Assembly (NCBI GenBank): GCA_034780895.1
Contig: JAUZTB010000066.1
Span: 11,781,342 to 11,845,152, forward strand
Direction: 5' to 3'
DNA from: Rhynchobatus australiae
Lineage: Eukaryota
DNA: 63,811 bases
Below, piece by piece: positions 1 through 63,811 of this stretch (position 1 is the stretch's first letter; every line of letters starts with the position of its first letter). The position numbers and the translations under genes are program-made. The notes beneath the pieces are model-generated. The model ran no database searches. It was given only the letters and a program-made list of their open reading frames with translations, and was not told the origin of the DNA.

Positions 1-1540
1 AGGATTGTAATACATGTAGGCACCAATGACATCAGCAGGAAAAGAAAAAGAGGTTGTGCATAATTGGTATGAGTAGCTGGGCATCAAATTAAGAAACAAT
101 CTTAAAGGTGATAATTTCTGTGCTATTACTTGAGTCACTTGCAAATTGGCATAGGACAAATACTGTTCAAGGAATGATCCTGTGATGTGAAGCCTGATCT
201 GCTAGAAGTGGGTTCTCATTCATGGTGCATTGGCACCAGTAAAGCGGGAAGTGAAGACTGTACCACTTGGGTGGTCTAACGTGAACTATGCTAAGACCTT
301 TGTTTTAATGAGTCATGTAACTTGGCAAGCAGGGAGCATTTTAGATCGGCTAAGGGGTCAAAGTCGCAAGAATAAATCAAAGAGTAGTGCAAAGCAGTGG
401 TGTTAGTAGTGCCATTGCTTCATAGCTCCAGTGACCCAGCTTCAATCCTGACCTCCAGTGCCATCTGTGTGGAGCTTGCATGTTTTCCCTTTGACTCTGT
501 GAGTTTCCCCTGGGTACTCTGGTTTCTTCCCATATCCCAAAATCGTGCAGGGTGGTAGGTTAATCGGCCACTGTAAATTGTTCCTAGTGTGCAGCTGGGT
601 GGTAGAACCGGGGGGCTGGAGGAGTTGATGGGAATGTGAGGGAATAAAATGGGATTAGTGTTAATAGGTGTATGACAGTGGTGCAGACGTGATGGGCCAA
701 AAGGCCTGTTTCCATTCTGTACAATTCCATGACAAAGCAAGAGAGAATACTGTCCTGGCAAATGATAACGCTTATGAAATAGAGAGGACAAATCTAAGAG
801 TAAATCAGTAGATAAGGACAGAGATTACAAAAAAATATAAAAGAACAAAGTTAATGGCTCTCTATCTGAATGCATGTAGCATTTGAAATGGGACAGATGA
901 ACCAAGCATGCAGATAGAAATATTTATGATATGAGAGCTATTATAGAGATATGATAGCAGGATGACTTAGAGTGGGACCTGAATATTGAACAGCAGGAAG
1001 GACAGCAAGCTAGGAAAAGGTGGAGGTGTGCCTCTTACTTAATGATAGTCTTGACACGCTAGAGAGGGATGACCTAAGTTCAGGAGACTAGGATGTAGAA
1101 GTTGTTTGGATGGAGATGACAAATGATAATGGAAAAAGTCACTTGTGCGAGGGGCGTACAGACCCCTTGAACAGAAACCACATGGTAGGATGGATTGTAA
1201 AGGAAGAATTAAGGGGATTGAAAGATACAAGATCACGAGGGGTCTTAAAGTGCATGTGGAGAGGATGTTTCCTTTTGTGGAACAATCTAGAACTAAGGGT
1301 TTAAGACAGATAAGGTGAAATCTGTCAGAGAGCTGTGAGTCTTTGGAACTCAATTGTGGTGGAAGTAGAATCTTTGACTATTTTTAAAGCAGAAGTAGAA
1401 ATGTGTGATAAGCAAGAAACTTAAAGGTTGCTGGGTGTAGACAGGAGTATAGAGTTGAAGTTACAGTGAGATCAGCTGTGATCTCATTCAGTGATGGAGC
1501 CGCCTCAAGTGACCTTCACCTGTGTCTAGCTCACATGTTC
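1..1540 (+). mobile_element. Degenerate CR1-like LINE, internally deleted (ORF1 esterase remnant, endonuclease start, 3' end), interrupted by a SINE
   Basis: IHVGTNDI (SGNH-type ORF1 block) at about 10-33; LYLNACSI endonuclease start at about 858-882; CR1-type 3' sequence at about 1250-1540; many stops. Confidence 0.7.
397..732 (+). mobile_element. HE1/V-SINE-like tRNA-derived SINE with possible 7-bp TSD (caaagca at 390-396 and 733-739)
   Basis: tRNA-like head, V-core (tgtgtggagcttgcatgttttccc...ctctggtttcttcccatatccc), LINE-derived tail gatgggccaaaaggcctgtttcc. Confidence 0.8.
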
Positions 1541-7260: not shown

Positions 7261-7775
7261 CCATAAGACACAGGAGCAGGATCAGGCCATTCAGCCCATC
7301 GAGTCTGTTCCGCCATTCGATTATGGCTGATTTATTTTTCCTTCTCAACCCCATTCTCCTGCCTTGTCCCCGTAACCTTTGACACCCTTATTAATCAAGA
7401 ACCTATCAACCTCCGATTTATATATACACAATGACTTGGTCTCCACAGCCATCTGTGGCAACAAGTACCACAGATTCACCACCCTCTGGCTAAAGAAATT
7501 CCTCCTCATCTCTGTTCTAAAGGGATGNNNNNNNNNNNNNNNNNNNNNNNNNNNNNNNNNNNNNNNNNNNNNNNNNNNNNNNNNNNNNNNNNNNNNNNNN
7601 NNNNNNNNNNNNNNNNNNNNNNNNNNNGTACCACAGATTCACCACCCTCTGGCTAAAGAAATTCCTCCTCATCTCTGTTCTAAAGGGATGTCCTTCTACT
7701 CTAAGGCTGTATCCTCTGGTCCTGGACTCTGCCACTACTGGAAACATCCTCTCTATGTCTACCCTATCCACACCT
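7261..7775 (-). mobile_element. Relatively young CR1-like LINE 3' fragment
   Basis: Minus ORF 7517..7879 reads ERMFPVVAESRTRGYSLRV..FRTEMRRNFFSQRVVNLW (CR1 ORF2 C-terminus), followed by the 3' UTR tail. Confidence 0.85.
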
Positions 7776-8039
7776 TTCAATTTGACAGCAACTAATGGAG
7801 TATACACATGAGCAGTTAAATTCAAATTTGCAATCAGCAGCCCTCCATTGGGTGCCTTTTCTACTCTTTGCAAGGTCATTGAAAATTAATTTGGTAAATT
7901 CATGGAAACTTCATTTTATGTATTGCCCTTGCTGTAATAAAAGCAGTAAAAACATTATATATTATGGAATGAGGTATAACTAAGTTATTATTAGCCCACT
8001 AGGCCATAATTGTTAAACGGCATCTCTGCCAGCCCCAAC

Positions 8040-37210: not shown

Positions 37211-39277
37211 TGAATATCCATAATAAAACAACATGTTCCTTATCATGTTGTTCTCTTACTGCTTTCTCTGCATTGACCATGAAATCAGGGAGGGAGGAGA
37301 AAAGATGCAGAACTGAAATGCTCCTATCCGGAATGAAAAGAACAACCTTGGACTGAATTTTGCAAAGTTCTATTACGTTTCTCTCTATCTGGCTTCCAAC
37401 TTTCTTTCAAAGACCAGTGAAAAGGTTGCCTTATTTATCTTTTTCAACTGGGGATTAATGTGAAGATGACACTTTCAAACACAAGTAAATAATTGATTAC
37501 TTCTCTATATTCACATTAACTAAATACCCTTTGAGAAAAGAAAGCCTGAAATAGATGGACATTTTTTTGGAAGGGAAAGTTGGACAATTAATTAATCTGA
37601 ACTGAAATAGCCCCAGGTTGTGATTTGTTTCCAATCTGACTATTGTAGCATTGTCATATAGCAACTTTTTAAAAATTAAAATAAACTAGTTGGTATGGTA
37701 TGGGCCCAAAGAATTACTAGCAGGAATGATAAGTGCACTCTGAATTTAGCAAAGACAGAAGTTCAAAGATCTGGTACTTTTAAAGTAGTTTCTATTTTTA
37801 CCTTCAACCCCACTTTTAGTGGACATGGGGTCATCGCCCATTGACAATGTGTGACTGCAGCCACCTCGATACTTCAGCAGTATTCTAATGAATCACTGAG
37901 CTGGTGTTGAGAAGGGTCACAGGTTCACTTAGTGAATATCAGACAAGCTGGCACTTGGGGACTGTTGGCTGGTGTCCTTCACTTGGGGNNNNNNNAAAGC
38001 AGTTTCACTATACAGTGATCCCTGCTGGATATATCTATGTGAATGAAGGGGGAAATCTAGGTTTTGATATTTTCATTAGTTTTATCATTTCATTGAAACC
38101 TGGAACCAAACAACTTTTTTTAGAAAGAGAACTGATGAAAAGCTGTGGCAGAACTTTTGTATTTTTATTTCACTACTTAAGCCTTCTTTAAAAACCATTT
38201 AAATTGGACACTATTATTATCTTGCATGAAATGTCTATTTTGAACTGAAAGTCTAAGTGTTAATCTACATAAGCAAGGTGATCCTGAGTTCTTCTATCCA
38301 TATCCTTACTCCTTTTCAGTCATCACAGCTGTGTTTTCAAATCAACAGTCGTAAACCCCTGGTCATTCAATGCCTCACTTTTAAAGTTCTCATTCTTTGT
38401 GTAATAAATCCATGATGGCCTTGCCCCTCACAATCTCTGTAATATCCTCCAAGATATCCACACTCCAACGTTTCTTGCTTCCTCCACATCCTCNNNNNNN
38501 NNNCTGCAATTGCCCTACCAGTGGCAGCTGTGCCTTTAGCTGCCAGGACCCTAAACTCTAGAATTCCCTTGCTAAGTCTCTCAATTTGACTATTCTTTTA
38601 TGATTCAATGGCAAACTCTGTTTAATGCAAAACTCCCGGAAAGTTACAACTGAAAGCTACTATCCAAACACAAGTTATTGTTGCCATGGTGAGAAAAGTG
38701 GGAGAGAAAGTGAAATTCAGTTGGCTAGGCCTAGGGAGTTGATGCTTGTTCTGAAATACAGTTGTGTGAATTGGTTAAGAATGCAACTTTTTTAATCCCC
38801 TTTAGAAGGGTCTTTATAACATTTCCAGGTAATAAAATGAAAAAAAAACACATTTAAATTAGTCTTTTTCTTGAAAAGACCAACTTTTGCCAATCAGACC
38901 ATGTGCCTTCATTTTGTGCATGGACTGAATAGAAAGTAGCAAAATGCCATATGTGCCATGGGAATATCCAGACTTTTGCCCATCATAGCTGGGTTAAAAC
39001 TCTCACTTTCTTTTTTCCAGATTTACAAAATGGCCCTAATTTGGGTCATTTGGGTATTTAAATTTGGTTCGGTGATCATCCCTCTTCCCTACAATGAGAA
39101 ATTAAATGGTGGTATGTTCTAAGTAGGATTTTACTTGGCACTGCATGCTTGGTATGGGTTGGTGCTTTGGTCTTAGTTAACTTGGAAATGCTTGTGCTTG
39201 TGTGCTGTGAAATGTGAAACATAGAATTCCATTCTTAACTGCTGGTATTTTGTCACTGAAAAGATTTATGTTTGCAG

Positions 39278-40246
39278 GGGAGGGCTTTGCAGAATTCAAG
39301 TCACCGGGAAATGATGATGGATTCACAGACTTCAAAACTGCAGACAGCATTTCACCAGTAGACTCTTCAGAGCAAGCAAAGACATTCACAACAGCTTTTC
39401 CTCCTGTGCCATTTCTTCCACAACTACAACCTGTAACGCAACCTAAAGACACTTTCAGTCTCACAGACCTTTTTAACTCTGTCAGTTCTTCTGGAGAGAA
39501 CAAATCTGTATCATTTCCATCAGTTTCTGTGACATCATCCATTACATCATCTGTATGTGTTGCACCGTCATTGCCATCATCACTCTCATCCGGTACTTTT
39601 TCCTCATCTGGTAGCAGGACTGTTGGCGGAATTGATGACTTTGGAGACTTCAGTCTTTTTGGCATTGCATCCAGTACTACTACAGGTGGGGAATGGGGTC
39701 AGGATGAATTTGCAGATTTTATTGCTTTTGGCACTACTGGATCCTCTGAACAAAAATCAAATGATAAGTACAGTGTATTCAGGCAGGAGAAGAATGATGG
39801 CTTCACAACATCTTTTGATGCCTCACTTGGCATAGCAGAACAGCCTCCAGCCTCCACTGTAGACAAGTATGATGTCTTTAAACAGTTACCTGAGGAAGGG
39901 TCTGTGATGGGCTTTGAGGAGCAAAAAGACAGCACCTCTCTTTCACAAGGGAAGAATGACGATGACTTTCCAGTTGCCAAGTTGCCCCATACATTTGGCA
40001 CCTCCGATAAGGCTTTCCTGGATAAACTTTCTACTTTTAAGCAAGCAAAAGAGGACTCTGCTTCTGTGAAATCTTTGGACCTTCCTTCTATTGGTGGGAG
40101 CAGTATTGGTAAAGAGGACTCAGAAGATGCCTTATCTGCTCAGTTTGACATGAAGTCAGCTGAGGTTGGTGGTGATCTGAAGCATGTATTGTCAGACAGC
40201 TCGCTGGATTTGCCACCTGTCATTGGTCAGCCACCTCCTGTTACAG
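39278..40246 (+). CDS. SYNRG: SYNRG large exon (969 nt) with several acidic-Phe AP-1/GGA ear-binding motifs
   Basis: ttgcAG|GGGAGGGC...GTTACAG|GTgagg; inside ORF 39214..40275; DGFTDF, DDFGDF, DEFADF, KEDSASVKSLDLPSIGGSS. Confidence 0.97.
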
Positions 40247-43200
40247 GTGAGGAAATGGTTCGATTGATCTGGTAAATACATCCAAATCAATTGCATACTG
40301 CAGTTACCTTTCTATAATACCGCACCAGTGAATTACCATTTACATATCTAGCTGTCCATTCTGTATAATCATCACTGTTGGGAATTGTATTGAGTGCCAC
40401 TGTTTGCAGTGGTGTTAAACACAATGGAAAAATCCAACTGATGCCCTTGATTTAGAGATATCACTGAGTAATTGTTTTAATGTACCTATTTTTACTCTAT
40501 TGCCATCAATGTATTGTTGTGCCAACATTGTTACTGCATTATATTTTTCCATCAGGAGTGTAACAGTATTCAATCAGTATGTGGAATGGCACAAATGTTG
40601 CTCGACCTCTACATTTTCAGGTTATTCATTATAATCCCAGAGAGAGTGACAATTAGTCAAGTTGGATGGCAATTGTTAGTTATTTTCTTTCCACCTTTCA
40701 GACTGCCATTTCAAATTTATGTTTCTATTTCATTTTTAACACCATATTCAACAGCAATTGCTTGTACAAAAAAGAACATGGTGCCTTAACGTGGTGCCTA
40801 GTTTTAACCAATTTTCTTACAAGGTTACAAATGATTCCTTTAATTATTGTGAAGGGGCACCATTATTGAAGATAAACAATGTTTTTATTTATGGAAGACC
40901 ATTTAAAGATGGTTTCAAAAATTTGACTTGGTAAAGTGCTTTAGACTTCCTTTGGTATGTTAATGTTTGTGCACAACCTGAGTTTGCCATGCTAAGTATG
41001 GACAGCATTAAAATAATTATCTATAGTTTCTTCAACTGATAGCAAGACAAAGGGGATGAATGCGCCAGTAACANNNNNNNNNNNNNNNNNNNNNNNNNNN
41101 NNNNNNNNNAAATAATGAAAGTAGTAATTGGTGATTTAGAGAGGATTTCCAGGTCAATTGACTGACTCAATGAATGTCCAGAAGAGAAGTCATTTTAAAA
41201 ACAGAATGCAACATTTTTCTCCTTCATAGTCTAAATAATTGCTCTTCATTTACTCATGGATGGCATAAATAATGTACCAAAAATTAAATATTGTCCCCTT
41301 CACAATCTATCCATACAACACTGACATACCAGACTAAGTTTAATGAGTGTCAATAATGGCAGTTCATATTAAGAGGTGGTGTGCATCTGTACCAATTGTT
41401 TGTGACATTTAAAGAATCAGAAAGCCAGAAATTAGGCTGAACAGAGACTAATAATTTTTCAAATAATTTGTCATGGTTAAGAGACTGATCTGGGAGCAAT
41501 GCCTGTAAAGTGCCCTCTAATGCCCATGGAAATCGCAACTGTTTTCTTTCAGGGTGCAAAGTGAAAATATTTTATAGTGGGACTATGTTGGCAAAATACT
41601 AAATTAGTAAGTGCAGTGTATTGAAGAGTTCTTCAATTTTTTTTCAATTTGCATGTCAACATTTTTTCAANNNNNNNNNNNNNNNNNNNNNNNNNNNNNN
41701 NNNNNNNNNNNNNNNNNNNNNNNNNNNNNNNNNNNNNNNNNNNNNNNNNNNNNNNNNNNNNNNNNNNNNNTTTGGTAACAGTTTTTTCAATTTACAATTC
41801 ATGTCGAAGATGCACTGCGGCTAAGTTATACTTGTATGTGGACCTATCGTAATTAATGGGATTGTTAATGTTTACTTTAAAATATTTTGGAGAGATCGGA
41901 AATGCAGCTTTAGCTGTAATCAAGTAGATTTACAGGCCCTGGGCTGTTGTCACTGCATTAGGTAAAACTAAATACAGTGTATGTATTCATTGCATTGTAA
42001 TGTTTAACCTATGGTGGTGCCACAAAAAACTGTTTGGATACTAACAATTGGGCACTTATTCAGTTGGTGTTGTGGGGCCATGGTACATATAAGTCAGCTA
42101 CAAAACTACATTTTTCTACACTTCATAATTAATTGGCTTTGGAACGACCTGAGGGCATGAAGATGTTGATTGTTCAAATGCATGCTCTTCATTTAAATGG
42201 GATCATTTTTTAAAAAGAAAATCCTTTCTTAAAATACACTGATGGGGAGATGGACTGAAGATGACATTCCAGCACTCCAGAGTTATTGTTAGAGTGGTGC
42301 TTGGATTTGGGCAAATGCAGCTCAGTGTCATAGTTTCTGCCTCTTGCATTGGACAACTGATCTCAAGTTGAACAGTGGCACTAAGGACCAGTTTTAAAAG
42401 ATGGAGCCACATCATTCTTAGATTTTTTTTTAATACCGAAATAAAAGCCAGCTCTGGTGGGATGATTTATCTTCTACACCTTGCTGACAACTTCAAAAGT
42501 GCCTCAATATCATAATTTATCTGTATTGTAGTCGCAGGTAAAGTGTTAACCCGTCATCATAATTCAATTGTGGCAGCTTGATTTTCTTTTAACACTATTT
42601 TGCTAATATTCAGCAGTGTTTAATTTAACAGGCCCTTTTAAGTGTTTGTTGCATTCACTGGTCTTTGTTATCCTGAAGCAATATTTGGTTTTATTAANNN
42701 NNNNNNNNNNNNNNNNNNNNNNNNNNNNNNNNNNNNNNNNNNNNNNNNNNNNNNNNNNNNNNNNNNNNNNNNNNNNNNNNNNNNNNNNNNNNNNNNNNNN
42801 NNNNNNNNNNNNNNTACAATGAATAGAACTACTTTTAATCAGTTATTTAAAAAAAAGCTTTTAAAATAGAAATGGAAGGCATTTCTTTTGAAAGTCAATC
42901 AAGTAGCTTTTGAAAATTGTAATTCTGATAAAGAGTATGAAAATCAGTTCAGTTGCTCCTTGCTGTATGTTAAACACAGTGGAAAAATATCTATACTGTT
43001 CTGTATTGTACAGTTTAAAGTTGAACTTAAATTCATACCCTTTTGTTGGATGTAATGCATCAGTGTAAGCTTTTCTTTGGATATTTTTTGTACTTTGTAA
43101 TAGCTCCAGTATTATGCTTATATAATACTGTACATTTGGCCATTTGGAAAAAAAATGTGCAGATTTTTGTGTTGCAGAATGACAAATGAGGTTTGTTCAT

Positions 43201-43254
43201 CAACATTTTTCTTATTCACTTTGTTTAGTCCAGCTTAGTGCTAGATTTTGCTTT

Positions 43255-44962
43255 AAAAACAAAAAATGCTGTAAATACACACAGGTCAAGCAATATCTGT
43301 GAGTTAATCTCAGGTTAATGACCTTTCATCAGAATTAGGGAAAAAATCATTATTGGATGTATTTTGTTGTAGAGATGAGGGAGGGTTGGAAAGAACAAAA
43401 TGAATGATAGGAGACTGAGAGAGACTGAATGACAAAATGAGCTGATGCTGGCAGAGAGAGGATGGTGAATCACATTTGATCTGTCTGGAAGAAACAGGTA
43501 TAGAAGGACATCAGTGAGAGGAAAATAAAAGAATGCTGTAACTGTGAAATATTGCAGTGGCAGGAAATCTAAAAAAAGGAAAGAGAATCTTGGAATTACC
43601 CAGCAGGGCAGGTAGCACCTGTGGAGAGGGAAAAGCTAAGTTAATGTTACAGATTTGGTGATCTTTGATCGGAATTGCCTAGTTCAGATACAAACTGAAA
43701 AGGCTAGTTATCTGAGTTGTTAAGTTCAGTGCTGAGTCATTGAGGGCCATTATGTGCCCATCAGAGGTTGAGATGCTGTTCCTCAAGTTTAGGTTGAGCC
43801 AATGCAACTGTGTAAGAGGCCAAAGACGCAAGGGTCAGAGTGGGAGTGAGATGCAGAGTTAAAGTGACAGGCAATTGGAAGCTCTGCTTCAACTTGGCAG
43901 AGCACCTCTGGTCAGTTTGCAAAGTAGTCACCCAATAAGTATATGGTTTACTCATTATGGAGGAAACCACATTCTGAGCACTGAGTGCACTATACTAAAT
44001 TAAGTTCTGCTTCACATGGAAAGTGTATTTGGGTCACAGGATAGTGGGAAGACAAAGGGCTAGTCTTGCATTTCTTGTGGTTGCATGAAAAAGTGTCATG
44101 AGAACCACCTGTCTAATTTCCACTACCTTCGATAAGATGCTACACCAGACACACCTTCTCCCCTCCCTTTTCAGCATTATTAAGCAACCATTCTCTTAAT
44201 GATTCCTCGGTTCACCTTTCCATCTCCATCAACAACCACTCAACCGAAGGATTTACGTGTTCTTCTAATTTAGTACATTGCATTTGATTATCACAATTTG
44301 AGATCATCTGCACTGGAGAAACCAAATTCAGATTGGCTGAATGTTTTGCAGAACACCTCTGTTCAATCTGCAAGCTACTGGTTCTAAGCTTCTGGTTTTA
44401 CTTTAATTCCACATTCTATTCCCATTTTGACCGATTAACGCTGTTGCAATAAAATTCAACGTAAGCTTGAGAAACAGCATTTCATCTTCAGTCCAGGCAC
44501 ATTGCAGGCCTCAGAACTCAACATTGAACTCAACATTTTCAGGTAACCAGCCAGTTTGTATCAGAATTGGCAGTTCTGAGGAAAAGTCATCAACCTTTAA
44601 TGATAACTCAGTTTTTCTCACAGATGCTGCTTAATCTATTTATATTCCAGATTTACAGCAACTGTAGTGCTTTGTATCTCAATACCAGGATTGTGTTTTC
44701 CTCCTTTCCTCTGTCCTCAGTCATCTATTTACATCGCCTCCAGACAGATAACAGTGATTAACAAGCCTTTACCACCTTATCATAGATGTTTCCTTTGTAC
44801 TCTCCACCTCTTTAAAATTTAAAACATCTTTGATTTCTAGTATTTCCTGCTTCTGATGAAAGGTCATCAGCCTGAAATAATTAACTCTGTTTGTCTCTGT
44901 GCAGATGCTGCCTGACCTGCCAAGATTTTTCAGATTTCTAGTATTTACAGTCTTTGCTTTTG
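43255..44962. mobile_element. Two Penelope-like remnants in inverted orientation
   Basis: Minus copy about 43255-44100 and plus copy about 44130-44960; the plus copy has a GETK.RL..CFAEHL.S remnant (about 44312-44365); the outer ends are the shared terminal segment. Confidence 0.65.
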
Positions 44963-45315
44963 GCTACAATTTGCTTACTCATTTGTTTTTAATTGCGATG
45001 TTATGCATTTTATTTGCAGGAAACTTTAAGCATTTGTTAACCATGGACTTTTTCCACCCACAATAACATAAGATGTGGGAGCAGGAATAGAGCATCCTCT
45101 GTCATTTAGTATGTTATGGCTAACCTTGTCCATTTTCCTGCCTGATCCCCATGTCCTCTGATTCAATTTGTGTCCATTGATCTATCTGTTTTAGTTTTGA
45201 ATGTACTCAGACAATATCCACAGACTTCTGAAGTAGAAACTACGAAAAAATTACAGCCCTTTGCATGAAGCAATTTTTCCTCATCTTGCTCTCTCACATT
45301 CTCCCCTTACCACTC

Positions 45316-45350
45316 ATCTCTCCCTCTCCCTCCCTCCCTCCCTCCCTCTC
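45316..45350. repeat. (CCCT)n microsatellite
   Basis: ctccctctccctccctccctccctccctctc. Confidence 0.85.
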
Positions 45351-47840
45351 TATCCTCATCGGTACATGTGCATCTCCCATTGACTGACATATATGAATCT
45401 AAAAGCTGCATGTGTAGTCTCTCCAATCAATGGTTGTCAACAACAGACCTGCAACTGTACACTTTATTATAATTTGAGAAGCTTGGGTTATGGAACAGCA
45501 CTCGTTGAAGGTCATCTCTGTTAGGAAAGAGCAGGTGAGCAGAATAAATAATTGGAGAGGTGGTTAGAAAATGCCAGCATTTAAAAATCAAAGAGAGAAA
45601 CCAGTATGAATCCCTGCAGATGTTTGTCCTTATAACCAACTCGAAAATGCCTCAAGAAGATTTGTTTAACAAAATTAGACATTAGATGACGTTGTACACT
45701 TCTAGTTGAAACTGCATTTTTCTATTACATACCTTCTGCATTTCAGCCCCTGCAGCATAAATGCTGTTATCATTTTCTGCATTTTATTGGAATAAAAAGC
45801 AAAGCTAATAGTTTGAGATGTTTGCTCCAGGAAGTCTGCAGACAAGAGTCCACATTTAAAAAGTTAGGTGGCAGCTTAATTGGCCAATCATTTGGCAAAA
45901 TTGGGGGAGAACCATAGGTCAAGCATCTTTCTCTTCAGTTAAAAAATGACATGCAGTCAACAAGAAGTCAATCAGAGAAGAGAAGAACTTCAGACTTGTT
46001 TAATGCCAGTTAAATTCACGGGTTTACTAGTCAGAATCATGAATTCAGGCAGTTAAAAGGAATTATGAGCTATTGTAATTTTTTGAGAGTCATTATGGTT
46101 TAATTTATGATTTATTGTAAATATTAATCTTCAGCTCCATTTGTTGTATCAAACATGATAAACAAGAAAAGACCAACTGGTCCATTTAATCTATTGCATA
46201 TAATTGTGATACTGAGTTTATCAATGCATGGACTACCAGGAGCCATGTGCCAAGCAAAGGGGGCGAAACAGATTAAATATAATCCCTTCAAAGAGCTGTT
46301 CATTTCCTCCAGCCAGAAGCAGGTTTTTATATTAAATCGTTTTGTGGATGCAACCTAGAACCCTAGTTGCATTGGCTTGAACACCATCATATTTGGCATG
46401 AACCTTCGAGAACAGGGAAATAAAGCAATCTGACCTTTGTCTTATACAGCCACCTCACTTTCTGTTGCTTGTTCATTTGTATGTTATGGATGTTGCCCTT
46501 AGGGACAGAATTTCTTAACCCATCTCTATTTTCCCCCAAGAAAGCAAGATACAATTAGGTAGCTTCCAAGGTCACTTTAAAAGGTAACAAAGGGTTAGCC
46601 TTTGGAATTGGAGTCACAAGCAGACTAGGCCAACTAAGGTCAACAGGCTTCCTTTCCTAAAGGCTTTCAAAGTTTTTATCTAGAGCAGACATGAAATTCG
46701 TAAGATTGAACTGCCAAATTACTCATTTAGATTACTTACTTCTTATTGTCGTTAATTTAGGATCTATCTGGAAATTAATTTTCTCTCTTTTTTTTGGTGA
46801 TGTCCCTTTCTGTAGACTTTCACACCTCCTCAAGATTTCTGAACATAAAACTAAACTTCTTTGAAGCTGTAAAGCTCTTGACAAGTGTAGTTTTTATTTC
46901 CAATTGCAAAAGTGCTGTACTGCCAATTGAAGCAAATCCATTAGATCTTTAGTCTTTCTTTTGCTCTTTAATTTACAGTTGATCAGTGAGGATATGGCCT
47001 TTAAGTGCATCATGTTATTATTCTTAATGTCCCCTCTGCTAGCTTCATTCTTTGGATGTAACACATATCCATTTATTTTCTATGATAAGATGTCTCTTTT
47101 GCACAATTTTTCTCATTCAAGGAACTTGGCCATTGCTGCCAAGGTTGTACTAATGGGCCATCTTAAAAGCCCTCATTAAGGCTGTGGGAGTTCTACTGTC
47201 GTGAAGTTCGTGAAATAAAATTCAGTGTTCTGCTCCAAAGATGAAGGAATGTATTTCTAGAGCAGTGTGACTTATAGACTTTGGTATTCCTATCTGCCCA
47301 CTACTCATATTCTTTCAGGTGGTAGAGCTAGTGAATTTAGACAGTGCTGTTGAAGAAGCCTTTACAAGTAATTGCATTGAAATGTTATGCATTTCAATCA
47401 CAGTACACTTGGAAGGTGTAAATATTTAAGTCAATTTAACTATATTCTCTTCTTCCTGAAAAAGTCAAATTTTATAAAAAATGTTAAAGTTGTTCTATTT
47501 TTGTTGGCCATTTCCATAGCTTGAGACAAAGCACAAACCTGTTAAGTTATTTTATTTCCCTTCATTTCATCAGCCAATACAATTCAAGACAGACAACATT
47601 ACCACAGCTGCCATCACACCAGCCATACTTTGCAATGGCTGAGATAGATGGCTTACAGTCCCACCCCAAATCCACATCAAAAGCCCAAACAATCAGCCCA
47701 ATGCTCAATTACTTGGAGCTACACTGCATCAAAGTCAGGAGAGCATTTTATGATATTAAAGTGTCTTCCTTAAAACAAAATGGAATACCTCCATGAAAAT
47801 GAACCAAAGTATTTTAGTTAGAATCCACAGTTTATTTTAC

Positions 47841-47975
47841 CTCTTCCCCTTTGGTTTGGGGTGGCTTTTTGACAACTTCCCTTATCAGTTGTAATATGCT
47901 GTCGGTGTTGAGTGTGTCCAGTGCTTGGACTAACCCTACCAGTGTTAGCTGAGCTTCACTGGCCACTGGCAAAAC
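47841..47975 (-). CDS. DOP1B: Next DOP1B/DOPEY2-like exon ([45 protein letters not shown])
   Basis: Minus strand tttacAG|GTTTTG...GAAGAG|GTaaaa; 135 nt, phase 0-0; matches recalled DOP1B [40 protein letters not shown]. Confidence 0.87.
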
Positions 47976-48089
47976 CTGTAAACACAAAGATGAAAACAGC
48001 ATTCCATTTATAATCCCTACACTTGGCAAAATGCTGCACTTACAAACACAAAATATTTCAATGGCCTTTTTCAACACAAGGACTAGTTG

Positions 48090-48390
48090 TAACACAAGTG
48101 GATAGGGTTGTAAAAAAGGAGTAGTTATGCATGCTTGCCTTCATTAGTCGGGACATTGAGCACAAATTGGCAAGTTACGTAGCCCCTGTATAAAACTTCG
48201 GTTAGGTCACACTTGGAGTATTTGTACAGTTCTGGCCACAACGTTACAGGAAGGATGTGGAGTCTTTGGAGAGGGTGCAGAAGAGGTTAACCAGGGTGTT
48301 AGCTGGATTGGATAGTATTAGCTACTAGGAGAGGTTAGACAAATTTGTGGTTGTTTTGCTGGAGTGTCAGAAGCTGAGGGGCAACTTTAA
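48090..48390 (+). mobile_element. CR1-like LINE fragment inside the DOP1B-like intron
   Basis: LYKTSVRSHLEY..QFW..Y.KDVE.LERVQKR remnant. Confidence 0.8.
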
Positions 48391-48796
48391 GTCTGATGTT
48401 TAGAAGCCTTTAATCAAAGCCTCAGGATCTACCAGTGTCTTTTATATCTGTTGACTACTTTTAAAATGTGATTGTTGTTGGGTAGCAAGTTAAATTTTGC
48501 ATACAGCAAATTTCCATTATTTCAATGGTGGGGTTGGGGGAGGGGAGAATGCCAAGCAAAACGCCAATAAACTCTTCCCTTCTGTGAACATTTAACAGAA
48601 TCTTTTGTACCACCAGGCATGGTTTCATGCTCGAGTCTTTTGTCCAAAGTTACCTTTAACAATACTCCCTTTGACAGCATTAGTATACCAGCCTAAATGA
48701 GACTGTCAAATCCTGGGCTGGGCATTGAACCCCCAATTTTCTGACTTGGGAGGCAAAAGCAGCACAAGCTGCTCGAAGCTAGCAACAGTACTATAA

Positions 48797-49018
48797 GATT
48801 GACTCTTGACCTCACAATCTACCTCATTATGACCTTGTATCTTATTGTCAACCTGCACTGTACTTTCTCTGGAGCTGTGACACTTTATTCTGCACTCTGT
48901 TATTGTTTTACCTTATACTACCTCAATACACTGTGTAACAAACTGATCTGTATGAACGTTATGCAAGACCAGCTCTTCCACTGTACCTCAGTACAAGTGA
49001 TGATAATAAACTAATTCC
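48797..49018 (+). mobile_element. 3' UTR of a young non-LTR element
   Basis: gattgactcttgacctcacaatctacctc...gtacaagtgatgataataaactaattcc; related reverse tail at about 51425-51457. Confidence 0.55.
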
Positions 49019-49341
49019 AACAAAAGGAATGCAATGGCAAAGTAATTGTGTTCGGGTAAGCATAGGTAGTGAGTTAACAAATATTCTTAACTGTGTGTAA
49101 TTGTGATAACATAAAAGTTGTTCCAAATGTTTGAAAAGCTTCAAAGCAAATTAAGTTAAAGGAGTTTTTTTTAAAGTAATGCTCTATGCCAGAATTACCT
49201 GGAACTACCTAGTATTTAGAAATGAACTGAAAAAAATAGTGAACCAGAAGGCAGGAATTTTCTTGAACTCAGTGACAGTAGAGAACAAAAATAAAGCTGA
49301 TATCTTTCAACAAAATCTTCAGCGACTGGCTTGGTTCCTAC

Positions 49342-49467
49342 CTTGCTTTGGTTCACTTTCTTGCTGCTTTTCCTCTTGTTCCACACTGTTGCTACAGCTG
49401 CCATCAGGTGAACACCCATCTGTGCAGCAAATGGGTTCAGGAGTTCCAGAATTTTCTGCCTAAGTGT
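49342..49467 (-). CDS. DOP1B: DOP1B/DOPEY2-like internal exon ([42 protein letters not shown]), antisense in SYNRG intron
   Basis: Minus strand ttttaAG|ACACTT...AGCAAG|GTagga; 126 nt, phase 0-0; matches recalled DOP1B [29 protein letters not shown]. Confidence 0.85.
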
Positions 49468-51814
49468 CTTAAAATAAACAATCAAAAGTGGGTTAAAACA
49501 TAACTCTTCTCCCCGCCCCCCAACTTTTTACAGCCCAACCAGACTAGTTCTCATCTCAAAGTCTCTCCCGACATTCATAACGAAGCGAAAGCCACATTGG
49601 GGGAAAACAAAACAGGGGACTTATTACACACTGTAGGTCAAGGTTTGATGTCAGATTGTCTGAAGAATGTATAGTCAAAAGCATCCTCATCGTGGGGCTA
49701 TTTTTGTGCTCAGGCTCAGCTACAAGTGGGCGTGTAGTCCATGACAAGATGAAAGATAAACTCTGTTTGAAGTCTGTAATGGCATGAAAAGACTGCATTT
49801 GATAATAGTGGCAGGAGAGCTCAGGGCCTGAATGACTCAGCATGTTATTGAACATTTCTCATGGTGTGGGAGGCCATTCAGCCCACTGAGTCTATTCCAG
49901 CTCCTGGTATAGCAAGCCCACTAATCCCTTTCCATGACTTATTGATTATGACACAGTGGGGTTCAAGCTAGCCTCCAGCAGAACAGTCCCCTTGCCCTTT
50001 TTATTTCCCTGTAACCCTAGTCTCTCTCACTGCCCATCAACTCTCACTTAGCCACNNNNNNNNNNNNNNNNNNNNNNNNNNNNNNNNNNNNNNNNNNNNN
50101 NNNNNNNNNNNNNNNNNNNNNNNNNNNNNNNNNNNNNNNNNNNNNNNNNNNNNNNGGGGGGGAGTTGATGTGAATGTTTGATGTTGAAAGGGTGTCCTAA
50201 GAGCAGAGATTTGGTAAAATGGGCCTATTCTCACAGGGTTTAAAAAGCATGGTAGGTGATCTCTTGGAAATACAAGACTCTGAGGGTGATTGAGGGGTTA
50301 GATGCTGCGAGGATGCTTTCTCTGATTGAAATTTCGAGGTCTAAGAAGCAGAATCTCAGGATATGGCTATTTGAAGGTAAATCAGTATCACAGCAATGTG
50401 ATTCAGGAAGATAGGTCACCACCACCACCTCGAGGCTGATTAGAAATGGGTTATGCATGCAAATCGTATAAATAATTTAAATATCTTGCATTAAGAAACA
50501 GCAGAATGGAAAACTATAATGAAAACTGGAAGGGGTAAGGGTATCTGTTGGGGTAAGGGCAGCTGTTGCTCATTGATAGATGGTGGTGATGTAGTTGTTG
50601 TGGTAAGGGAGAGTTAATTATGGAAGATGTGAAGGATACAAGGATATGCAATAGGCAAAGGCAATGCTGTTCGCCATATGTGCCATTAAAATATTAACAG
50701 GTGTTCATGTGTTCAGAGGTGCCAAGTTTGAAGTATCCATGTTAGCAAGACATTGAGATACTGAGTCAGAATATTGTTACACAGGATTCATTTCACCTTA
50801 AACCACTTTGTATTAGAAGGATGTAATTTAATCTGTCCTTGTTCTCCTAGTTTTGTTAATGTTTGAACCTCCTGGATTTAGATGCATCACAGCTAACATA
50901 CTGAATCCAATCCAGTAGAGTTGAAGCAGAAGTAGGGAGGCAATGTCTTGATTTGACATCATAGAATGGCATGTGCAAATGCCAGAATATTAGAATAGTG
51001 AATTTTATGCAATTTGATAGGTAACAAGGTTGATAACAAAAAGATACTTCAGTATTTGGGAAATAATAAAGCTTCTGTAATTGATAGCAAGAGAGCAGAA
51101 GTGGATATTTATGTAGCTTGCAGTGCTGCATTATTTTTAACAGTATTATATTTTGCTCTTTGTGCTCTGTCTCTAATTGCTTTTGTTAATCAGTGGATAA
51201 GAACCAACAACTTGCTGTGGCCGTGTTTTTGCTGAGAACCTTGGTCATTATTCACTGTACAAAATAATTGGGAGAGACTATACAGTATATACGAATGACC
51301 CTATTTTGTATATCTCCTTCCTTTCCTGACTGAGAATGAGGAATAGTCATCTTAATTTTACCCTGATTTTAATCTGCATTGTTGAATAATTGGTGCGGGG
51401 AATGCAATAAGTCAGCAAAGGGGTATTGGTTTATTATTGTCACATGTACCGAGATACNNNNNNNNNNNNNNNNNNNNNNNNNNNNNNNNNNNNNNNNNNN
51501 NNNNNNNNNNNNNNNNNNNNNNNNNNNNNNNNNNNNNNNNNNNNNNNNNNNNNNNNNNNNNNNNNNNNNNNNNNNNNNNNNNNNNNNNNNNNNNNNNNNN
51601 NNNNNNNNNNNNNNNATACATCGGGAGATCGAGTTCATCTTTTAGCACATGTGAGATCCATTCAAGAGTCTGATAACAGCGGGATAGAAGCTGTCCTTGA
51701 GTCTGGTAGTTTATGCTCTCAGGCTTTTGTATCTTCTGCTGGATGGGAGAAGTGAGAATAACCAGGGTGGGAGGGGTCCTTGATCAATTTAGCTGTTTTC
51801 CCACGGCAGCGGGT

Positions 51815-52365
51815 TAAGTGAGTGATCAAAAAGAAGTAAATGGAGTGTAATTTGGGGAAATGTGAAGTGCGCCCCTTTGGTAGAAAGAAGAGAAAAGCAG
51901 AGAAATCTAGGTATAAGAAACACAAAATTAGCATATAGGTATAGAGGTAACTAGGCATATGGAATGTTCACATATATTGCAAGGGGAATGGAAGTTAGGA
52001 TGTCTTGCTTCAATTGTACAGTGCTTTGGTGAGGCCATATCTCCATTGCATGAAGTTTTGGTCTTATTTAAAAGATATACTTCCTCTGAAGAAGTATTGA
52101 GTTGATTAAACCTATATTCCCTAGAGACTGGAAAAATGAGAGGTGGTCTTATTCAAAGATATGATACTGAGGGGCTTGACAGTGTTGTATGTTTTGAGGA
52201 TGTTTTCCCCTGGTCGAAGAATCTAGAACAAGAGGGCATAATCTGTGGATAAAGGATTTTGCACTTAAGATTAAAATGAATCAGAATTTCTTTGAGATTT
52301 GTGAATCTTTGACATTATTTACCCTAGAGAGATTTGAATGCTGAGGCATTATGTATATTCAAGGC
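51815..52365 (+). mobile_element. Degenerate CR1-like LINE fragment
   Basis: gggaaatgtgaagtg, LYSALVRP remnant, aatctagaacaagagggcat, tatattcaaggc. Confidence 0.7.
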
Positions 52366-53140
52366 NNNNNNNNNNNNNNNNNNNNNNNNNNNNNNNNNNN
52401 NNNNNNNNNNNNNNNNNNNNNNNNNNNNNNNNNNNNNNNNNNNNNNNNNNNNNNNNNNNNNNNNNNNNNNNNNNNNNNNNNNNNNNNNNNNNNNNNNNNN
52501 NNNNNNNNNNNNNNNNNNNNNNNNNNNNNNNNNNNNNNNNNNNNNNNNNNNNNNNNNNNNNNNNNNNNNNNNNNNNNNNNNNNNNNNNNNNNNNNNNNNN
52601 NNNNNNNNNNNNNNNNNNNNNNNNNNNNNNNNNNNNNNNNNNNNNNNNNNNNNNNNNNNNNNNNNNNNNNNNNNNNNNNNNNNNNNNNNNNNNNNNNNNN
52701 NNNNNNNNNNNNNNNNNNNNNNNNNNNNNNNNNNNNNNNNNNNNNNNTTTGATATTGTTTCCAGTCATCATGCCTCCACTGATGATAAATGAGTTTCCAT
52801 ATGGGCCATTGGACTACCTTCGGTAGCTTTTGAATCTTAACATAGATCATTAAGGACACAAATGTCACAAAGTACTGGTTAGCCCAGAGGTAGTAAAATA
52901 TCACAGTGTTTCAGTCGTATTTTTTAAAGTGCAGTGGATGGAGAGTAGGGCCAGGGAGCCACACTGTGTGGAGAAATAATGGTGTAAACTTTGATCTAAA
53001 CTTTATTGTTAATGCTTGAACATTGAACTGGATGTTTATTAGTGAAGAAAACAGTATCGTCTCTAATCTGGGTATCTTGGCTGATGAAGGATAAGGTGTT
53101 CAGAGGAAATTAAGAAGAAAACTATAAATTAAATGTTGTC

Positions 53141-53250
53141 ATATTTGGAGAACAGTAGATTAAAAGTAAATTATTTGAAGAACTGTAGATTAAAAACAGT
53201 ATTATTTGTAGGTTAAAAACAGCATTATTTGGAGAACTGCAGATTAAAAA
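53141..53250. repeat. Short minisatellite, about 30-bp unit, about 3.5 degenerate copies
   Basis: Recurrent tatttggagaactgtagattaaaaacag. Confidence 0.8.
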
Positions 53251-56200
53251 TGGTGTTGTTAGCCTGAACCAAATTTAACTGATGTGCCTCCATGTGACTT
53301 GCATATTTTCAGGCCTTCAGTGTTATGTGTGGCAGGATGACAGGCTTGTATAACTCTGCTCAGGTTTAGACCTTGAATGTAATAGCAAGTGTGTTTATTA
53401 TGGAATATCTTGTAAATATAATTAAAGACTAGCTCAACAATGTACAAATAGTATTATTGTTATAGATTGATATTATGACAGTACAATCTATTTAAATTAT
53501 CTGGTAAGTACATCTGCTAAATCAAAATTCTAATATGGTATTATTTGTCACTTCTTTCAAATTTCTGAATAATTCAAAGATAGCTGAATTATCAGGAGCT
53601 GACTTTGTTGCATTTTTCTTGATGCAATAGCTGTTTGTTTCTTAAAATTATTGCCATGTTTTTGATACAGAACACAAACACTTACAAATCTGCTTTGTGA
53701 ATTCCTTGTGAATAAGTAAACTCGTACTTAAAATTGCAGATAGGTCTCGGCTTTATTTTTCAACATGAAGTCAGTAGCGTACAATCAATCTATCAAAGAT
53801 GAAACTAAATTTTTATTAACCAACCAGACAAGATCAATCCAGTAATTTAATGGTTTAGTTTTTTAAATGGGTTGCACTTGAAGATGTAGTCAGAAATTGA
53901 ATCAAATGACTTTTAGCTTGTTTCAGACTAAAGATGCTTTGAACTTTATGGATGCATCCACACATGTGGGACATCAAACTGTCGCACAGGTAAAATTCTA
54001 CACCACACTTCAAACAAAAGTATAAGCAAAGGGAGGCACTTCCCACCAATAGAACATATCTTCATCAAATTGACACAATGTTAAGTTTTTGTAAAACAAA
54101 AGTTACAACAAAAAGCTAGACTAACGATTAATTGATCCTTTTTTTTAATGGACACAAAAAGGTGCAGGATAAATCCTTCTTGTCATTAAGTTACACAGAC
54201 CCAACTTCAGCTGCAAAAGAAAGTTGTACATTGCCTACTATGATAGTTCTACCCTCATGAACAGATCTATTAGAAATCATCTATCATATAATACAGAATA
54301 AAATATTCATGGTAATTTCTTGATTCCAATAACATTTTTAAAACCCAGCTAAAAGAATGACTAGTTAATAGAAAGAGACCAACCTAATTAAGGAAACAAT
54401 GGCAGTTGGTCATTGCCATGCTGAGGACTGGTAAAATAATTCTTTTTCTCATATTGTTATATTACAAATGGAAGAGAAGTGGGAAACAGTATAGAATTGG
54501 ATCTGAGTATAACTGTATTTCTACTCTTATCTTCCTCTGACACTTGAGAATTGTGAATCTGCCAGACTATACTAAGGGCTTTTTCACTTGAGCTTGAAAT
54601 TGAGGAAGTGAATTATTTATAAGCATTGTGTCATTAGATCCAAGCATAGCAGTTTCATGGAAATACTGATTTTTTTTTAAAAAACAAGAGCGGTCCCAGT
54701 GCCAGAATGGTCTAATAACTGTGGTATAGCAACCTGACCAGTGATGCTTTGTGGTCTTGAATAATTTAGAATGTTTATTGACATTATACAAAGCAATTAT
54801 GAGCCTTAAGAATCAAAACATTCCTGTAAAGAAAGGGACCATTTAGAGTCCAATCTTTGTATGTCTAAGGNNNNNNNNNGGCACTTGTAGTACCTGATAT
54901 GTTAGAAAAGCATCTTTACTTCAACCTGTTATGAAAATTTTGTGCTTGTATATCCCATTTGTACTGAGCAACCACCCCCCTCCCCCAATCCCTGCATCAC
55001 ACTATGTGTAAACTTTAGATTAAATACCACCTTGACATTACTGTGAAGTTGAATTGCACTTTGTTTTTTTGATCATGTATGACTTTTGGTGAACAAGTAA
55101 GCTTACAGAACCAAAATGATTGAATTAGAAGAGCAGCACTTGACTTTGATTTGACTTTGCTGCTGAGCTTAAGTTACACCTCATATCGACTAAATGTAAA
55201 TAATGTGTAAACTTTAAAAAGGTCCACCGCATTTATCAAATTCATTTCCTGATGGATCAGTTTGAGACCAGAATTTCAAAACATTTTAAAACAAGCAAGA
55301 AGTGCAGGAGAAAGAGAATTGACAATGGGCAGGGAGTTGGGTATTTACAATATAAAAAAAGATACCTATTGTGTAAAGGTTCTCAGAATAGATGAGAAAT
55401 TGGCAAACAATTGTTATTGTGTGGAAGCAGGCTTAACTTAGTTTTGAATGCGTGGAGGATTAAAACTAAAGGCTAACCCTTGAATTTAAAAATATATGTT
55501 GTGATCTGAGTAGAGCAAGAAACTTGCATTCGTTGATGATTTCCTTTGTTATTTTATAATTAATTCTCACTTGAGGTATCTGTGATTTTAAGAGGCAATA
55601 AATGTTTTTGATTTCCAGTGTATTGTCTTGTGATCTCACTTAAATGTCTAGGAAATGTTTTAAGGGACTGAGTTTTCGTCTGAATATAAGCCTACTCTCC
55701 TCCACTCTTGTGCAGTTGAGCCTGAATACATTTTTGGTGAGATAAACAATTACTTGTAGGAAGTTTTAGCAGTCTTAAACTATGCTTTCCATTACTTATC
55801 ACAAGAATATACTGTTAGCAACTTTATGTTTTACATTAGCAATTATTTAAAGCCAACACAAATAAAAATGTTAGGTATGTTAATATCAAAATAGTATCCT
55901 GAGACAATCATATGTTGAATTCTGAATAGTAACCCAGTTTTATTCCAATTATAAATGTCTTATCAATGGAACTTTTGCTAAAATAAATTTCTACTACTCA
56001 CTAATGAAGATGCAAAATATTCTGAACCATTCTATCCTTAATGCGTGAATAATTATCATATCTGTGCTGAAAATAGACTTGGATTCATTTTAGTCATTTT
56101 CTTTCTAACTTTTCTGTATCTAGCCAAAAAAAACTGTATAACTTTCTTTGTTTCACATCAGCTCCATTGACATCTTAAGCCTGTACAGTTGAGTCCAAAT

Positions 56201-58671
56201 AAAGGCATACCTGCTGAATCCTAATTTACTCTGTCCATGGAATTTCTGATCTAAATATAGCCCAGGGATATATGCCAATATTCCTGATTAGTGGTGTTGG
56301 TCATGTCTTTATCAGGATTCAATTGCATTCCAATAAATTTATCTTACTGCTTTTTGTAATGAAGTGCAATCTCTTGTATAAAAATGCTTAATGCTTTAAA
56401 AGACTTTCTACCTGAATCTGCTTTCTTAAGCTTTTCTTTCTGTAATTTGCTCTGTTTGCAGAAGTATTGCATGTGAAGTCTAATCTGTATTTTAAATAGC
56501 TGTTACACTCTGTAATGTATGACTACTGCATATACTATTTTCTGACTTTTTTCTGAAGTGGCATCTTGCTAATAAACATTAATCTTTGAATATTTGATGG
56601 TGTAATGTCATGTTGACTTGCCCTAACTAAAAGTGCCCAGATTAAGTGGTAGGTGTCCTATTTGCCAAACTAATCCAAGTGTACAAAAATATATAACCAA
56701 CAAAAAAGACTTGCAATGCACTGACTGTAACATATCAAAACCCATTTTAAATATAATCATAAATCTCAAAGCATTTTTGACTACCAAAGACTCTATGATT
56801 TAAATGATATAACTTATTTCAAATATTGTGCATTCTTCTATGTCTGTAGTAGAAAGTGACCTCCAATTATAACCCACCTCTGATTTTGTTTTTCCCTGTG
56901 CCTATTCATTCGGGTGGGATAATTTCATTTGAGTTAAACTTGTTGATGTCCTATAATGATGCTCACTGACAAAATTCTGAGGAAGTATCCTCTATCATCG
57001 CAGTTATGTTCCATTCTCTCAAACTTTTTTCATGCTTTTTACTTTTCTCTGTTGTTTACATTCATTATCATTATCATCTTTCTTCCCTGTGTGTGTCTTT
57101 AAACCTTGTTCTTTGTGTCTCTGTGATCCTTCATTAAAGAGCCTCCTCTCCTCTGTCTCATGCCTTTATCTCTCATCCTCTATATGTCTTAGCATATGAA
57201 CCTTTACTGATTTACTCAATCTGTAACTTTCTCTTCTCATTATTTGTCTCCTCAACACTTACCTTTTGTTATTTCTCATAACTATTCTACAATAGTTTAT
57301 ATTGACCCGTGTGAAATGCCAATAACATTTAAAGTTTTGTAATAAAGTTGAAGGCATGTGGAAGGAAGATAAAGTGGGAAGTGCGTAATGAGTCTGGGTA
57401 CAAAGAGATAGGGGCCAAAAGCCCTGAAGGTGATACACTATATGAATGTGAGAGCACCTGGGGACTTGTTTTGGGAGTAGGAAACTGGAGGCAGTACGAT
57501 AGAGAGAGGAGGAGAGCAGTCTGGAATGTTCCATTGCTACAGTAGATCTGACTAATCCCAAAACATCATGGGAGAACCTGAAGGGATGCCACAAAGGCTC
57601 AGCCGGAAGTATGTGTTAAGTTCTTATAGAATGGGAATTGTTGGGTTTGGAAGCTGGCATGAGATAGCACAAAGTTAAGTTCAGAGGCCACAAATCAGGG
57701 TGGAGAGCCAGGGGAAGTGGTAAAATTTGGGCTTTGAGTTTGGAGAGAAGGGAGCAGAGCTCATATGTGGAGAATATTGTTATGGGATTAGAACGTGGAG
57801 CTGGAAATTACAGTGGGGACAGGCTCTAGAACTACGTCGAGCAGTAAAACTATATAAGTACTACATTAGGATCTGCAGAATTAATGTATGCAAGTGGGCC
57901 ACTGTAAGAAGGAGGTAAGCCAGAGCTGGTGTCCTTGGGGTATGTTTGTAAGAAATCTAAACACCAGTTGTATGTAAAGAGCCTGGGATTTCATGAAAAA
58001 TTGAACCTTTAGACAGCTTAAAAACTTCTGAAGATAGATTTCCAATCATCTGGTTGCCCCACAGTGTCACATGATTGCATTAAATGCATTAACAAGTTCA
58101 CAAGAGCATTGCTATTATACATTTCAACCAAAATTGTTTGTCATACGTCCCAGGTTAGGTGGCACCCAAGGAAAGAGAAACACAATTAACATTTCAGGTC
58201 AAACAGATATTCTGTGGTAACTATCAATGGAAGTGTGGTGGGAAAAGTGTTTTATAGGAAACATACATGACATTCACATGTGTTTTAGCATGCTCATTTA
58301 TAAATGCACCAAATTAAAAATAATTTTGATAAATAACTAAACATTACTTCTGGAGGGACAGTGACTTCTGGTTAAATGTTGGTGTGATTAGGTTTTCAAC
58401 TTTCTCATAAAACAAATATACACAGAAAATAGAAATCATGTTCACAACCTATGAGCTATTGTGGTGAACTGGGACTGCCTTTACTCCAAAATATATTCTT
58501 CATTCTATTGTGGGAAACACACAAAGATATTAACAAATTCAGTCACACTTTTCCTCTGTGGGTACAGTTGGGCACATTATTTCCACTGTCAACAGCATTT
58601 CCAAGTGTTTTGACCCATTAGTTAAGTCCTATAACTTCATAAAAGAAATATGTGCGAATAATTCCATAATA

Positions 58672-61255: not shown

Positions 61256-62966
61256 ACACAAAATAACTGAACCTATTTTAATATTTGTAACAAGCTGCAT
61301 TTTTGATTGGACAGCCTATTCAAAAATAGTTGTAACATACTGTATATACAGACAGGAAAACAGATTAAGTAATGTTAAATCTGGGTAATGATTTAACTGA
61401 TCAAAGAACAGATGTATGTAAAAAGCATTGCCAAATCCATTGTTGATGAATGTTGGTGTTTCAGATACTTATAGACTAATGATTCTTGAGTAGATATTCC
61501 TACTGACAAGTGAAGCTGTAAAAAAATAAATAAATAATGCTACTTATGATGAGTTCTGCTTGTAAAGTTAACAATGAACTTTGCAGCTGAGATTTAAAGA
61601 AATTGTAATCAACATAGTTGCAGTATTTCAAAGCAATTGAATTTTTATCTTGTTAATGACGCTGCCTGCAAGTTTTTTGTTTCGATGCAACATTACTAAT
61701 TTATTCTGACCATCACTGTTGGCAATCATCTGCATTTGCTGCAGATTTCATTCCAGATCTCATCAACAAGCTGTTCTTTGATTGTTTGCAGGCTAATCCC
61801 AGCAGCATCAAAGACAACGGAAATCCATTTTTGACAGTGTAGGAAATTAAACATTGGAATCTTTTTTTTTGAAAAAGATGACTAATGACTTTGTTTGGCC
61901 TGTGAGTTGTGTTGATTGTTGATTATTACTTAGTAAATGGCAATTACGTCATGAATTTTATTTTTGTTCCCAACTTCCTTTGCTTAAAAACACTCTGTGC
62001 AATGAAGTTGGTTGAATTACTTGATTGTGGAGTTGTCCTATTGATACCGTAACTGACTGACTGGGGGTGGAGAGGGGTGGCATAGCCAAAGGTGACTTAA
62101 CTTTGTCCTCAACTTGGTTAAGATCAGAAATTTGTTGTGTGGGATATCATGGGCACACACCATTCCATGACATAGAACACTGGAGCTCCGCTGTATAATG
62201 ATATCCAGTAATTATGCTGTTTAAATTCTGCTTGTCTAGCCTGACCATTCTAAAAATAGTCAGGAGTTTAGCCAGTTGAAATGCTGAATTCCTTTTCAAA
62301 TTGACAAAATTAAATATGTTGTCATATCTCTACTCTTGGTTATCTGTCACAATCCACAGCATGTGTAAAATGCCTAAGAATTAACAGACCATGCTTGATT
62401 TGTGAGAGCAGCAGTTAAGGAAATAATGATAACACATGCTGGTTACAACCAGTGACATGCTTCAGCTTTACATAACTGAAGCTGACTGTCAAATCTAGTT
62501 CACTGTTAATTTGGAGAACCACGATCTTTAACACAAATGACTCCAGGTCCATGCTTGAAGCTGAAAGAGAAAAGATATTTGTCAACATAAGACAGATCAC
62601 CCTAAGTCTTTAAGGTTTTTCTTGCCACGTCAGCTGGAAAATAAATGTTGGAGCTGTGCCTCGGCAAGAGCAAAAAATCTTAATCACTTTTGACACATTC
62701 TTTTAATTTCCTGAAGCGGATGTCAGTTGGGCTTCTGAAAATCATGGAAGACACTGACAATGGCTCTGAGGTCTATTTCAAATAAACCAGTCTGCTGAAA
62801 TACAAATAAATAGCAAGGGTGAGCATCCACTGATCAGCTTCAGGTCTTGTAATATTTTATGTTCAGTTAAGTATTTATTAGTTAAGATGTGTCGTTCTAC
62901 CAAATTATAGTCATTTAAAGAATTCAAAGTTTAAGGTCAGTGATCAGAATTCACTGTTTCTTTCAG

Positions 62967-63587
62967 ATCTGGATGACTTTAAGTTTGACCCGTTTGGTAA
63001 CTTCAGCAATGGCTCTGCAGTGAGCAGTTTAACCAGTTATGATTGGTCTGAGAAAGAAGACTCTGGCTCCCAGATTAAGAAGCAGCCACCATTCTTCTTT
63101 AATTCAGAGGGCAGATCCTTATCCTCCACCTCAGTGCTTCAGAAGAAAGAAACTTCTTTCGGCAGCTCCGAGAACATCACTATGACGACTGTCTCCACGG
63201 TAACAACATTCTCAGCTGAGGATGCAAGCTCCCAACACAAGTTTGATGCCTTTGGAGACTTCAAAGAGACTGCAGAGCAGACTGCAGAGAAAAAGGAAAG
63301 TAATAATGACTTTGGGGACTTTGCAATTACTTCATATAGGGAGGGAGAGATTACAGAGCCTAATGTGGCAGAATCAACCCTGGGTGATACAGAGCAAAGC
63401 ACTGTCACAAATGGGGTTTCCTCCGAAGAAACAAAAACTGAAGCCTTTGATGAATTTGGGGAATTTCAAAGTGAAAAGCCAAAAATTAGTAAATTTGATT
63501 TCCTAATGGCTAGTTCCCAGGGAAAGGTGAAATCCAGTGAAGAGATGATCAAGAGTGAACTGGAAACATTTGACCTTTCTGTGCAAG
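62967..63587 (+). CDS. SYNRG: SYNRG exon (621 nt; DLDDFKFDPFG...SELETFDLSVQ)
   Basis: tttcAG|ATCTGGAT...GTGCAAG|GTatgt; phase 1-1; KKETSFGSSENITMT, DEFGEFQSEKPKISKFDFL. Confidence 0.97.
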
Positions 63588-63811
63588 GTATGTAATGACA
63601 GTCTGTACCCAGTCCTAAATTGATTTTGGTAATAGTACTACTTAAGCTCAAAATTGGCTTCTGCAAAAGCATGTACTTGGTAAAAAGAAAATTTAGATTG
63701 CAGGAAAAATGGTTGTTCAAACTTAAAAATAACAGTTAGTAATTTTGTCTGTTTTGAATTTACAAGGAACAAATTTTTAGAGTAACTTACTAACATACTT
63801 CAAGGTGTGGT

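Follow-up and report, generated by a model that had tools for sequence, protein, structure and literature searches.

The stretch of Rhynchobatus australiae DNA analyzed here, 63,811 nucleotides long and hereafter called the window, carries exons of SYNRG. The best matches to this host gene come from skates and rays, at 93-95%, including 95% to a skate synergin gamma, and its exons run in order through the window and its flanks. Between the exons at ~40245 and ~62960 lies a SYNRG intron of 22.7 kb, and it is this intron that holds a piece of DOP1B on the opposite strand (Table 1). The host gene is collinear across the foreign piece, with no exon missing between 40245 and 62960. A first-pass annotation of the window had described two minus-strand exons antisense to SYNRG within the intron, and its account is upheld by our analysis; SYNRG exons map on either side on the + strand, and the two DOP1B exons, A and B, are free of stop codons, have canonical splice sites (AG at the acceptor, GT at the donor) and are in phase 0 at 4/4 ends. 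The 1.37-kb intron between them, which had been called repeat-containing, measures 1,366 bp and indeed contains high-copy repeats.

Table 1. Coordinates of the SYNRG and DOP1B features discussed in the text; positions are those of the window unless a scaffold is named.
Feature	Position	Strand	Remarks
SYNRG exon before the intron	39274..40245 (about)	+	residues about 633-956 of skate synergin gamma
Next SYNRG exon	62960..63589 (about)	+	residues about 955-1166 of skate synergin gamma
DOP1B piece (two exons and intron sequence)	47547..50055	-	2,509 bp; contig breaks at left end, N run at right end
21-base pyrimidine-rich word	47547..47567		common to both sides; SYNRG-intron contigs end and DOP1B contigs begin here
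DOP1B exon B	47841..47975	-	135 nt, 45 codons, phase 0/0; precedes C87 exon starting KPTLVDIP
DOP1B intron between exons A and B	47976..49341	-	1,366 bp, interspersed high-copy repeats
DOP1B exon A	49342..49467	-	126 nt, 42 codons, phase 0/0; follows C87 exon ending YFKSTK; single genomic match
N run at far end of the piece	50056..50155		exactly 100 N
N run at the DOP1B home locus	G000:C87:105,505,142-105,507,568	DOP1B on -	2,427 N

Judged by sequence comparison, the two peptides are consecutive, real and intact exons of DOP1B and are closer to DOP1B than to DOP1A. We compared them with 85 Dopey proteins, a set retrieved with a different, longer C87 exon as query and to which the E-values are relative. 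Exon A is matched by 67/85 of these proteins, exon B by 66/85 and both by 62/85, and in all 62 proteins that match both, these matches lie within 3 residues of each other. This adjacency excludes chance matching and agrees with the earlier proposal that the peptides derive from neighboring DOP1B exons. Exon B is 56-73% identical to the DOP1B rows of the set, whereas its identity to three DOP1A-like rows is 37-46%. Taken by itself, exon A does not discriminate against distant rows, being 50% identical to the DOP1A row P0073, but its residues 1-26 are identical to a zebra shark dopey-2 model (P0003). Among 1.84 billion representative proteins, exon B has 51 matches at E<=0.001, named dopey-2 proteins among them, although the top two are multi-stretch matches that look spurious. 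A Pfam scan of the two peptides returned no family for either, a search of solved structures with exon B gave no match, and a word-indexed search with exon B among longer proteins passed 0/31 candidates. The flanking exons that should accompany the pair had been reported as not found in the sequenced part of the window, and tblastn with full Dopey proteins likewise finds no further DOP1B exon there. As a separate observation, P0003, which its source flags as low quality, departs from the alignment inside exon A and rejoins it several exons later, likely owing to an annotation or assembly fault in that shark record.

The rest of the gene resides elsewhere. Pfam-based searches place DOP1B on the minus strand of scaffold C87, at about 105.47-105.58 Mb, and both Dopey_N (PF04118) and DOP1_C (PF24598) are found on this C87 portion. 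Immediately downstream of DOP1B, and on its strand, is an exon of MORC3 (G000:C87, about 105.454 Mb); the two genes are neighbors in human as well, on chromosome 21. When a 2,306-aa DOP1B-like protein is mapped to the genome it falls into 32 pieces, 28 of them on C87, ordered and on one strand, with 2 in the window and 2 on scaffold C98. The residues of protein P0004 pass from C87 (1094-1156) to the window (1157-1198, then 1199-1243) and back to C87 (1243-1262).

Whether the native locus retains the two exons had been singled out earlier as a point to check, and we find that DOP1B on C87 lacks both, with the 2,427-N run sitting between their expected neighbors. The C87 exon ending YFKSTK (at about 105,507,832) is followed by ~260 bp, the N run, ~775 bp and then the exon starting KPTLVDIP. 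Phase 0 holds throughout, from the C87 donor across the two window exons to the acceptor on C87, and exons A and B are therefore in frame with their native neighbors. The suggestion that the remaining exons might be hidden in gaps of the window is thus not borne out, as the flanking exons are on C87, around the N run. The run of 2,427 N also compares well in size with the 2,509-bp piece in the window, which is on the same strand, such that the native locus is without the sequence and has in its place an N run of similar size, an N run reading the same whether it stands for an assembly gap or for a withheld stretch. It is likely that the piece belongs in this run. N runs are frequent in the assembly (111 in 320 kb of genome sampled, 40 of them exactly 100 long, where runs cut by a border may count twice), so that finding a gap between two exons is unremarkable, and specificity comes from the size match alone. 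Comparison of the piece with the flanks of the C87 gap revealed no overlap, the longest exact matches being 8 and 6 bases. The C87 flank matches a 317-position repeat profile (score 95.5 versus a shuffle maximum of 49) and stops at its position 93; the inside of a repeat is a usual site for a contig to break. At the start of the piece, continuation of the repeat scores 42 versus a shuffle maximum of 52.5, which is not significant, and that end has no match to the profile.

Exons A and B appear in the genome once. Exon A has 1 match in 2.23 Gb, its own, and exon B has 2, its own and the DOP1A paralogue on scaffold C76 at 35%. Extending exon B with downstream intron sequence, to 408 bp, leaves the window as the sole match in 2.23 Gb.

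The left end of the piece was located with assembled contigs from 4/13 listed public runs (4 studies, 3 species labels), aligned to window positions 40001-57000; X1 and X3 are labeled with the species of the best-matching run, which is that of the host, and X2 and X6 with other species. Five contigs, from 4/4 runs, break at the 21-base word and continue into sequence unlike the window. On the SYNRG side, contigs of X1, X2 and X6 (records 4, 11 and 29) stop at 47567 with 69, 121 and 119 non-matching letters beyond; on the DOP1B side, contigs of X2 and X3 (records 12 and 20) start at 47547 with 599 and 128 non-matching letters before. Among the 32 contig pieces listed, none crosses the word and none bridges the 100-N run at the far end; 137,637 others are outside the listing, nearly all of them at high-copy repeats as judged by a depth table, and a bridging piece could be among these. 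The first-pass annotation had held that a misassembly would show itself by a native locus lacking the two exons and by junctions that no reads span. The former is what we find, and the latter extends to the left junction, as seen in the 32 listed contig pieces and hence in contigs, not raw reads. The word is likely a false overlap, and the 100-N run likely a scaffold gap of nominal size. A search for the word elsewhere, as in a reciprocal chimaera, gave 1 genome match, the window's own.

Run X1, the best run, contributes 8 listed pieces with 0 differences from the window; X1 may be the source of the assembly and thus perhaps not independent of it. In the best run, the depth of the contig on the piece is 8.41, compared with 4.4-8.9 on unique SYNRG intron, and is therefore not doubled, a weak comparison as contig depth is not copy number. 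Two other features of the intron deserve record. One is a loose end in X1 at window position 41802 (4 records, about 21 letters), 30 bases past a 100-N run at 41671-41770, which is possibly another small assembly fault. The other is the contig depth at window positions 55310-57000, which is 0.2-0.6 in X1, 0.9-1.6 in X2 and 33-60 in X6; the drop in X1 and X2 possibly reflects thin cover.

Displaced exons are also found in other parts of the two Dopey genes. Downstream of the exon ending GHFLLLG, DOP1B on C87 lacks the expected next exon, which is found instead as two exons on C98. This second orphan pair is intact, with an 83-bp intron, and lies between N runs on the + strand (G000:C98:107,133,943-107,134,237). 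Its outer phases, 2 and 1, fit the donor and acceptor on C87, and the stretch of C87 between those sites contains N runs of 100 and 1,652. For DOP1A, the first coding exon is on C118 (G000:C118:45,700,040-45,700,204) and the rest of the gene on C76, apart from coding exons 2-3, which are on C27 (G000:C27:2,882,310-2,884,158), 70 bp from a 100-N run and in a 7,481-bp stretch between N runs. On C76 there are N runs of 8,473, 2,807 and 5,779 upstream of the first mapped DOP1A exon. DOP1B is accordingly distributed over 3 scaffolds (C87, C98 and that of the window) and DOP1A over 3 (C118, C27 and C76). The assembly is heavily gapped, with small contigs placed on wrong scaffolds, and that the pattern recurs in at least 3 other pieces of the Dopey genes points to the assembly as its origin.

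We conclude that exons A and B, the only copy found of two ordinary internal DOP1B exons, very likely came to lie in the SYNRG intron when their 2.5-kb contig was placed on the wrong scaffold. Four results together support this: the sequence occurs once, the home locus lacks it, contigs break at the 21-base word, and the piece borders on an N run at its other end. Of the several origins offered in the first-pass annotation, the contig breaks, the single copy and the C87 N run hence favor the third, a chimaeric join within a gappy assembly. The exons are real and their neighborhood very likely false, rather than the result of a duplication, a nested gene or a retrocopy. DOP1B and SYNRG both act in TGN/endosome trafficking, as was remarked earlier, but this shared role is irrelevant if their neighborhood is an artefact.

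Such a mis-join could have arisen as follows. Broken up by repeats, the DOP1B locus would have been assembled as short contigs. During contig extension or gap closing, one of these may then have been attached to the end of a contig from the SYNRG intron through the low-complexity word of 21 bases that the two share. The far end of the piece would have been left as a nominal gap of 100 N, while the gap on the home scaffold presumably remained, its size taken from read pairs. The animal itself would then have an ordinary, contiguous DOP1B beside MORC3 and a SYNRG intron shorter by about 2.5 kb.

One alternative is that a real, very recent duplication carried 2.5 kb of DOP1B into the SYNRG intron through 21-base microhomology and is private to the assembled individual or heterozygous, its identical copies having been collapsed onto C66 with a gap left at home. 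We regard this as very improbable. It also predicts one assembled copy and a same-sized gap at the home locus, microhomology at the junction is compatible with a real insertion, and contigs can drop rare alleles. However, two runs with the host's label (X1 and X3) have contigs that continue beyond the junction word differently from the window, no listed contig supports the join seen in the window, depth on the piece is not doubled, and displaced exons recur in the other Dopey gene pieces described above. A duplication or capture at the DNA level had been among the options raised at first, yet neither a second copy nor a parent copy able to source exons A and B was found in the 2.23-Gb genome. 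A segmental duplication is present as two genomic copies and here there is one, which leaves a small chance to a second copy that is collapsed or hidden. That exon shuffling is caught here at a polymorphic stage in a cartilaginous fish, with a 2.5-kb, two-exon DOP1B insertion specific to an individual and placed in the SYNRG intron by 21-base microhomology, is a correspondingly slim prospect; were the insertion real, it would add a modest case of microhomology-mediated exon shuffling.

Still less credible is that DOP1B is truly split over chromosomes and trans-spliced, or that a nested or interleaved gene is hidden in the gaps of the window. Both exons are intact and in frame and occur a single time in the genome, as either would have it, but the other exons are on C87, ordered and with sized gaps where the missing ones belong, and contigs under three species labels contradict the junction. 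For a nested gene, moreover, the nearby N runs of the window, of 100-382 bases, leave too little room, given a gene of 100 kb, and whereas such a gene lies whole within the host intron, 28/32 mapped pieces are on C87. The chance that the exons are a processed retrocopy or an accidental open frame is close to nil. We found no support for either, and rejected both on account of an intron with canonical sites at the very point where the peptides abut in 62/62 proteins and of a parent locus without the exons. A retrocopy has its introns removed and a complete parent; here the intron of 1,366 bp is kept and the C87 parent is without both exons, in line with the early argument that a retained intron speaks against a retrocopy.

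The preferred reading, an assembly mis-join, has precedents. Rhie et al. (2021; PMC8081667) report that hummingbird assemblies from short reads contain about 5,000-8,000 mis-joins, chimaeric joins among them. They describe the platypus VTG2 gene as 14 contigs in 3 scaffolds, one part of it falsely placed as an intron of CAPN-13, and the gene YIPF6 as divided between two scaffolds. The likeness to VTG2 is close, in that DOP1B is on 3 scaffolds with one part in an intron of SYNRG. The present case differs from those of Rhie et al. 2021 (PMC8081667) in the species and assembly, and in that the junction was located to 21 bases by independent contigs.

With nested antisense genes and segmental duplications, the locus shares the presence of opposite-strand exons in a long intron of another gene. 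It differs from them in having no start, no end and no second copy, in a donor locus that needs the piece to be complete, and in a junction without support among the listed contigs. From an ordinary DOP1B (DOPEY2) gene it shows no biological difference.

Altogether, the value of this case is only as a warning on this assembly, in which both Dopey genes have exons on other scaffolds. Before any other orphan exon, seeming exon loss or nested gene reported from this genome is pursued, the gaps at its home locus should be inspected. For DOP1B itself, a gene model drawn from C87 alone would wrongly miss four exons.
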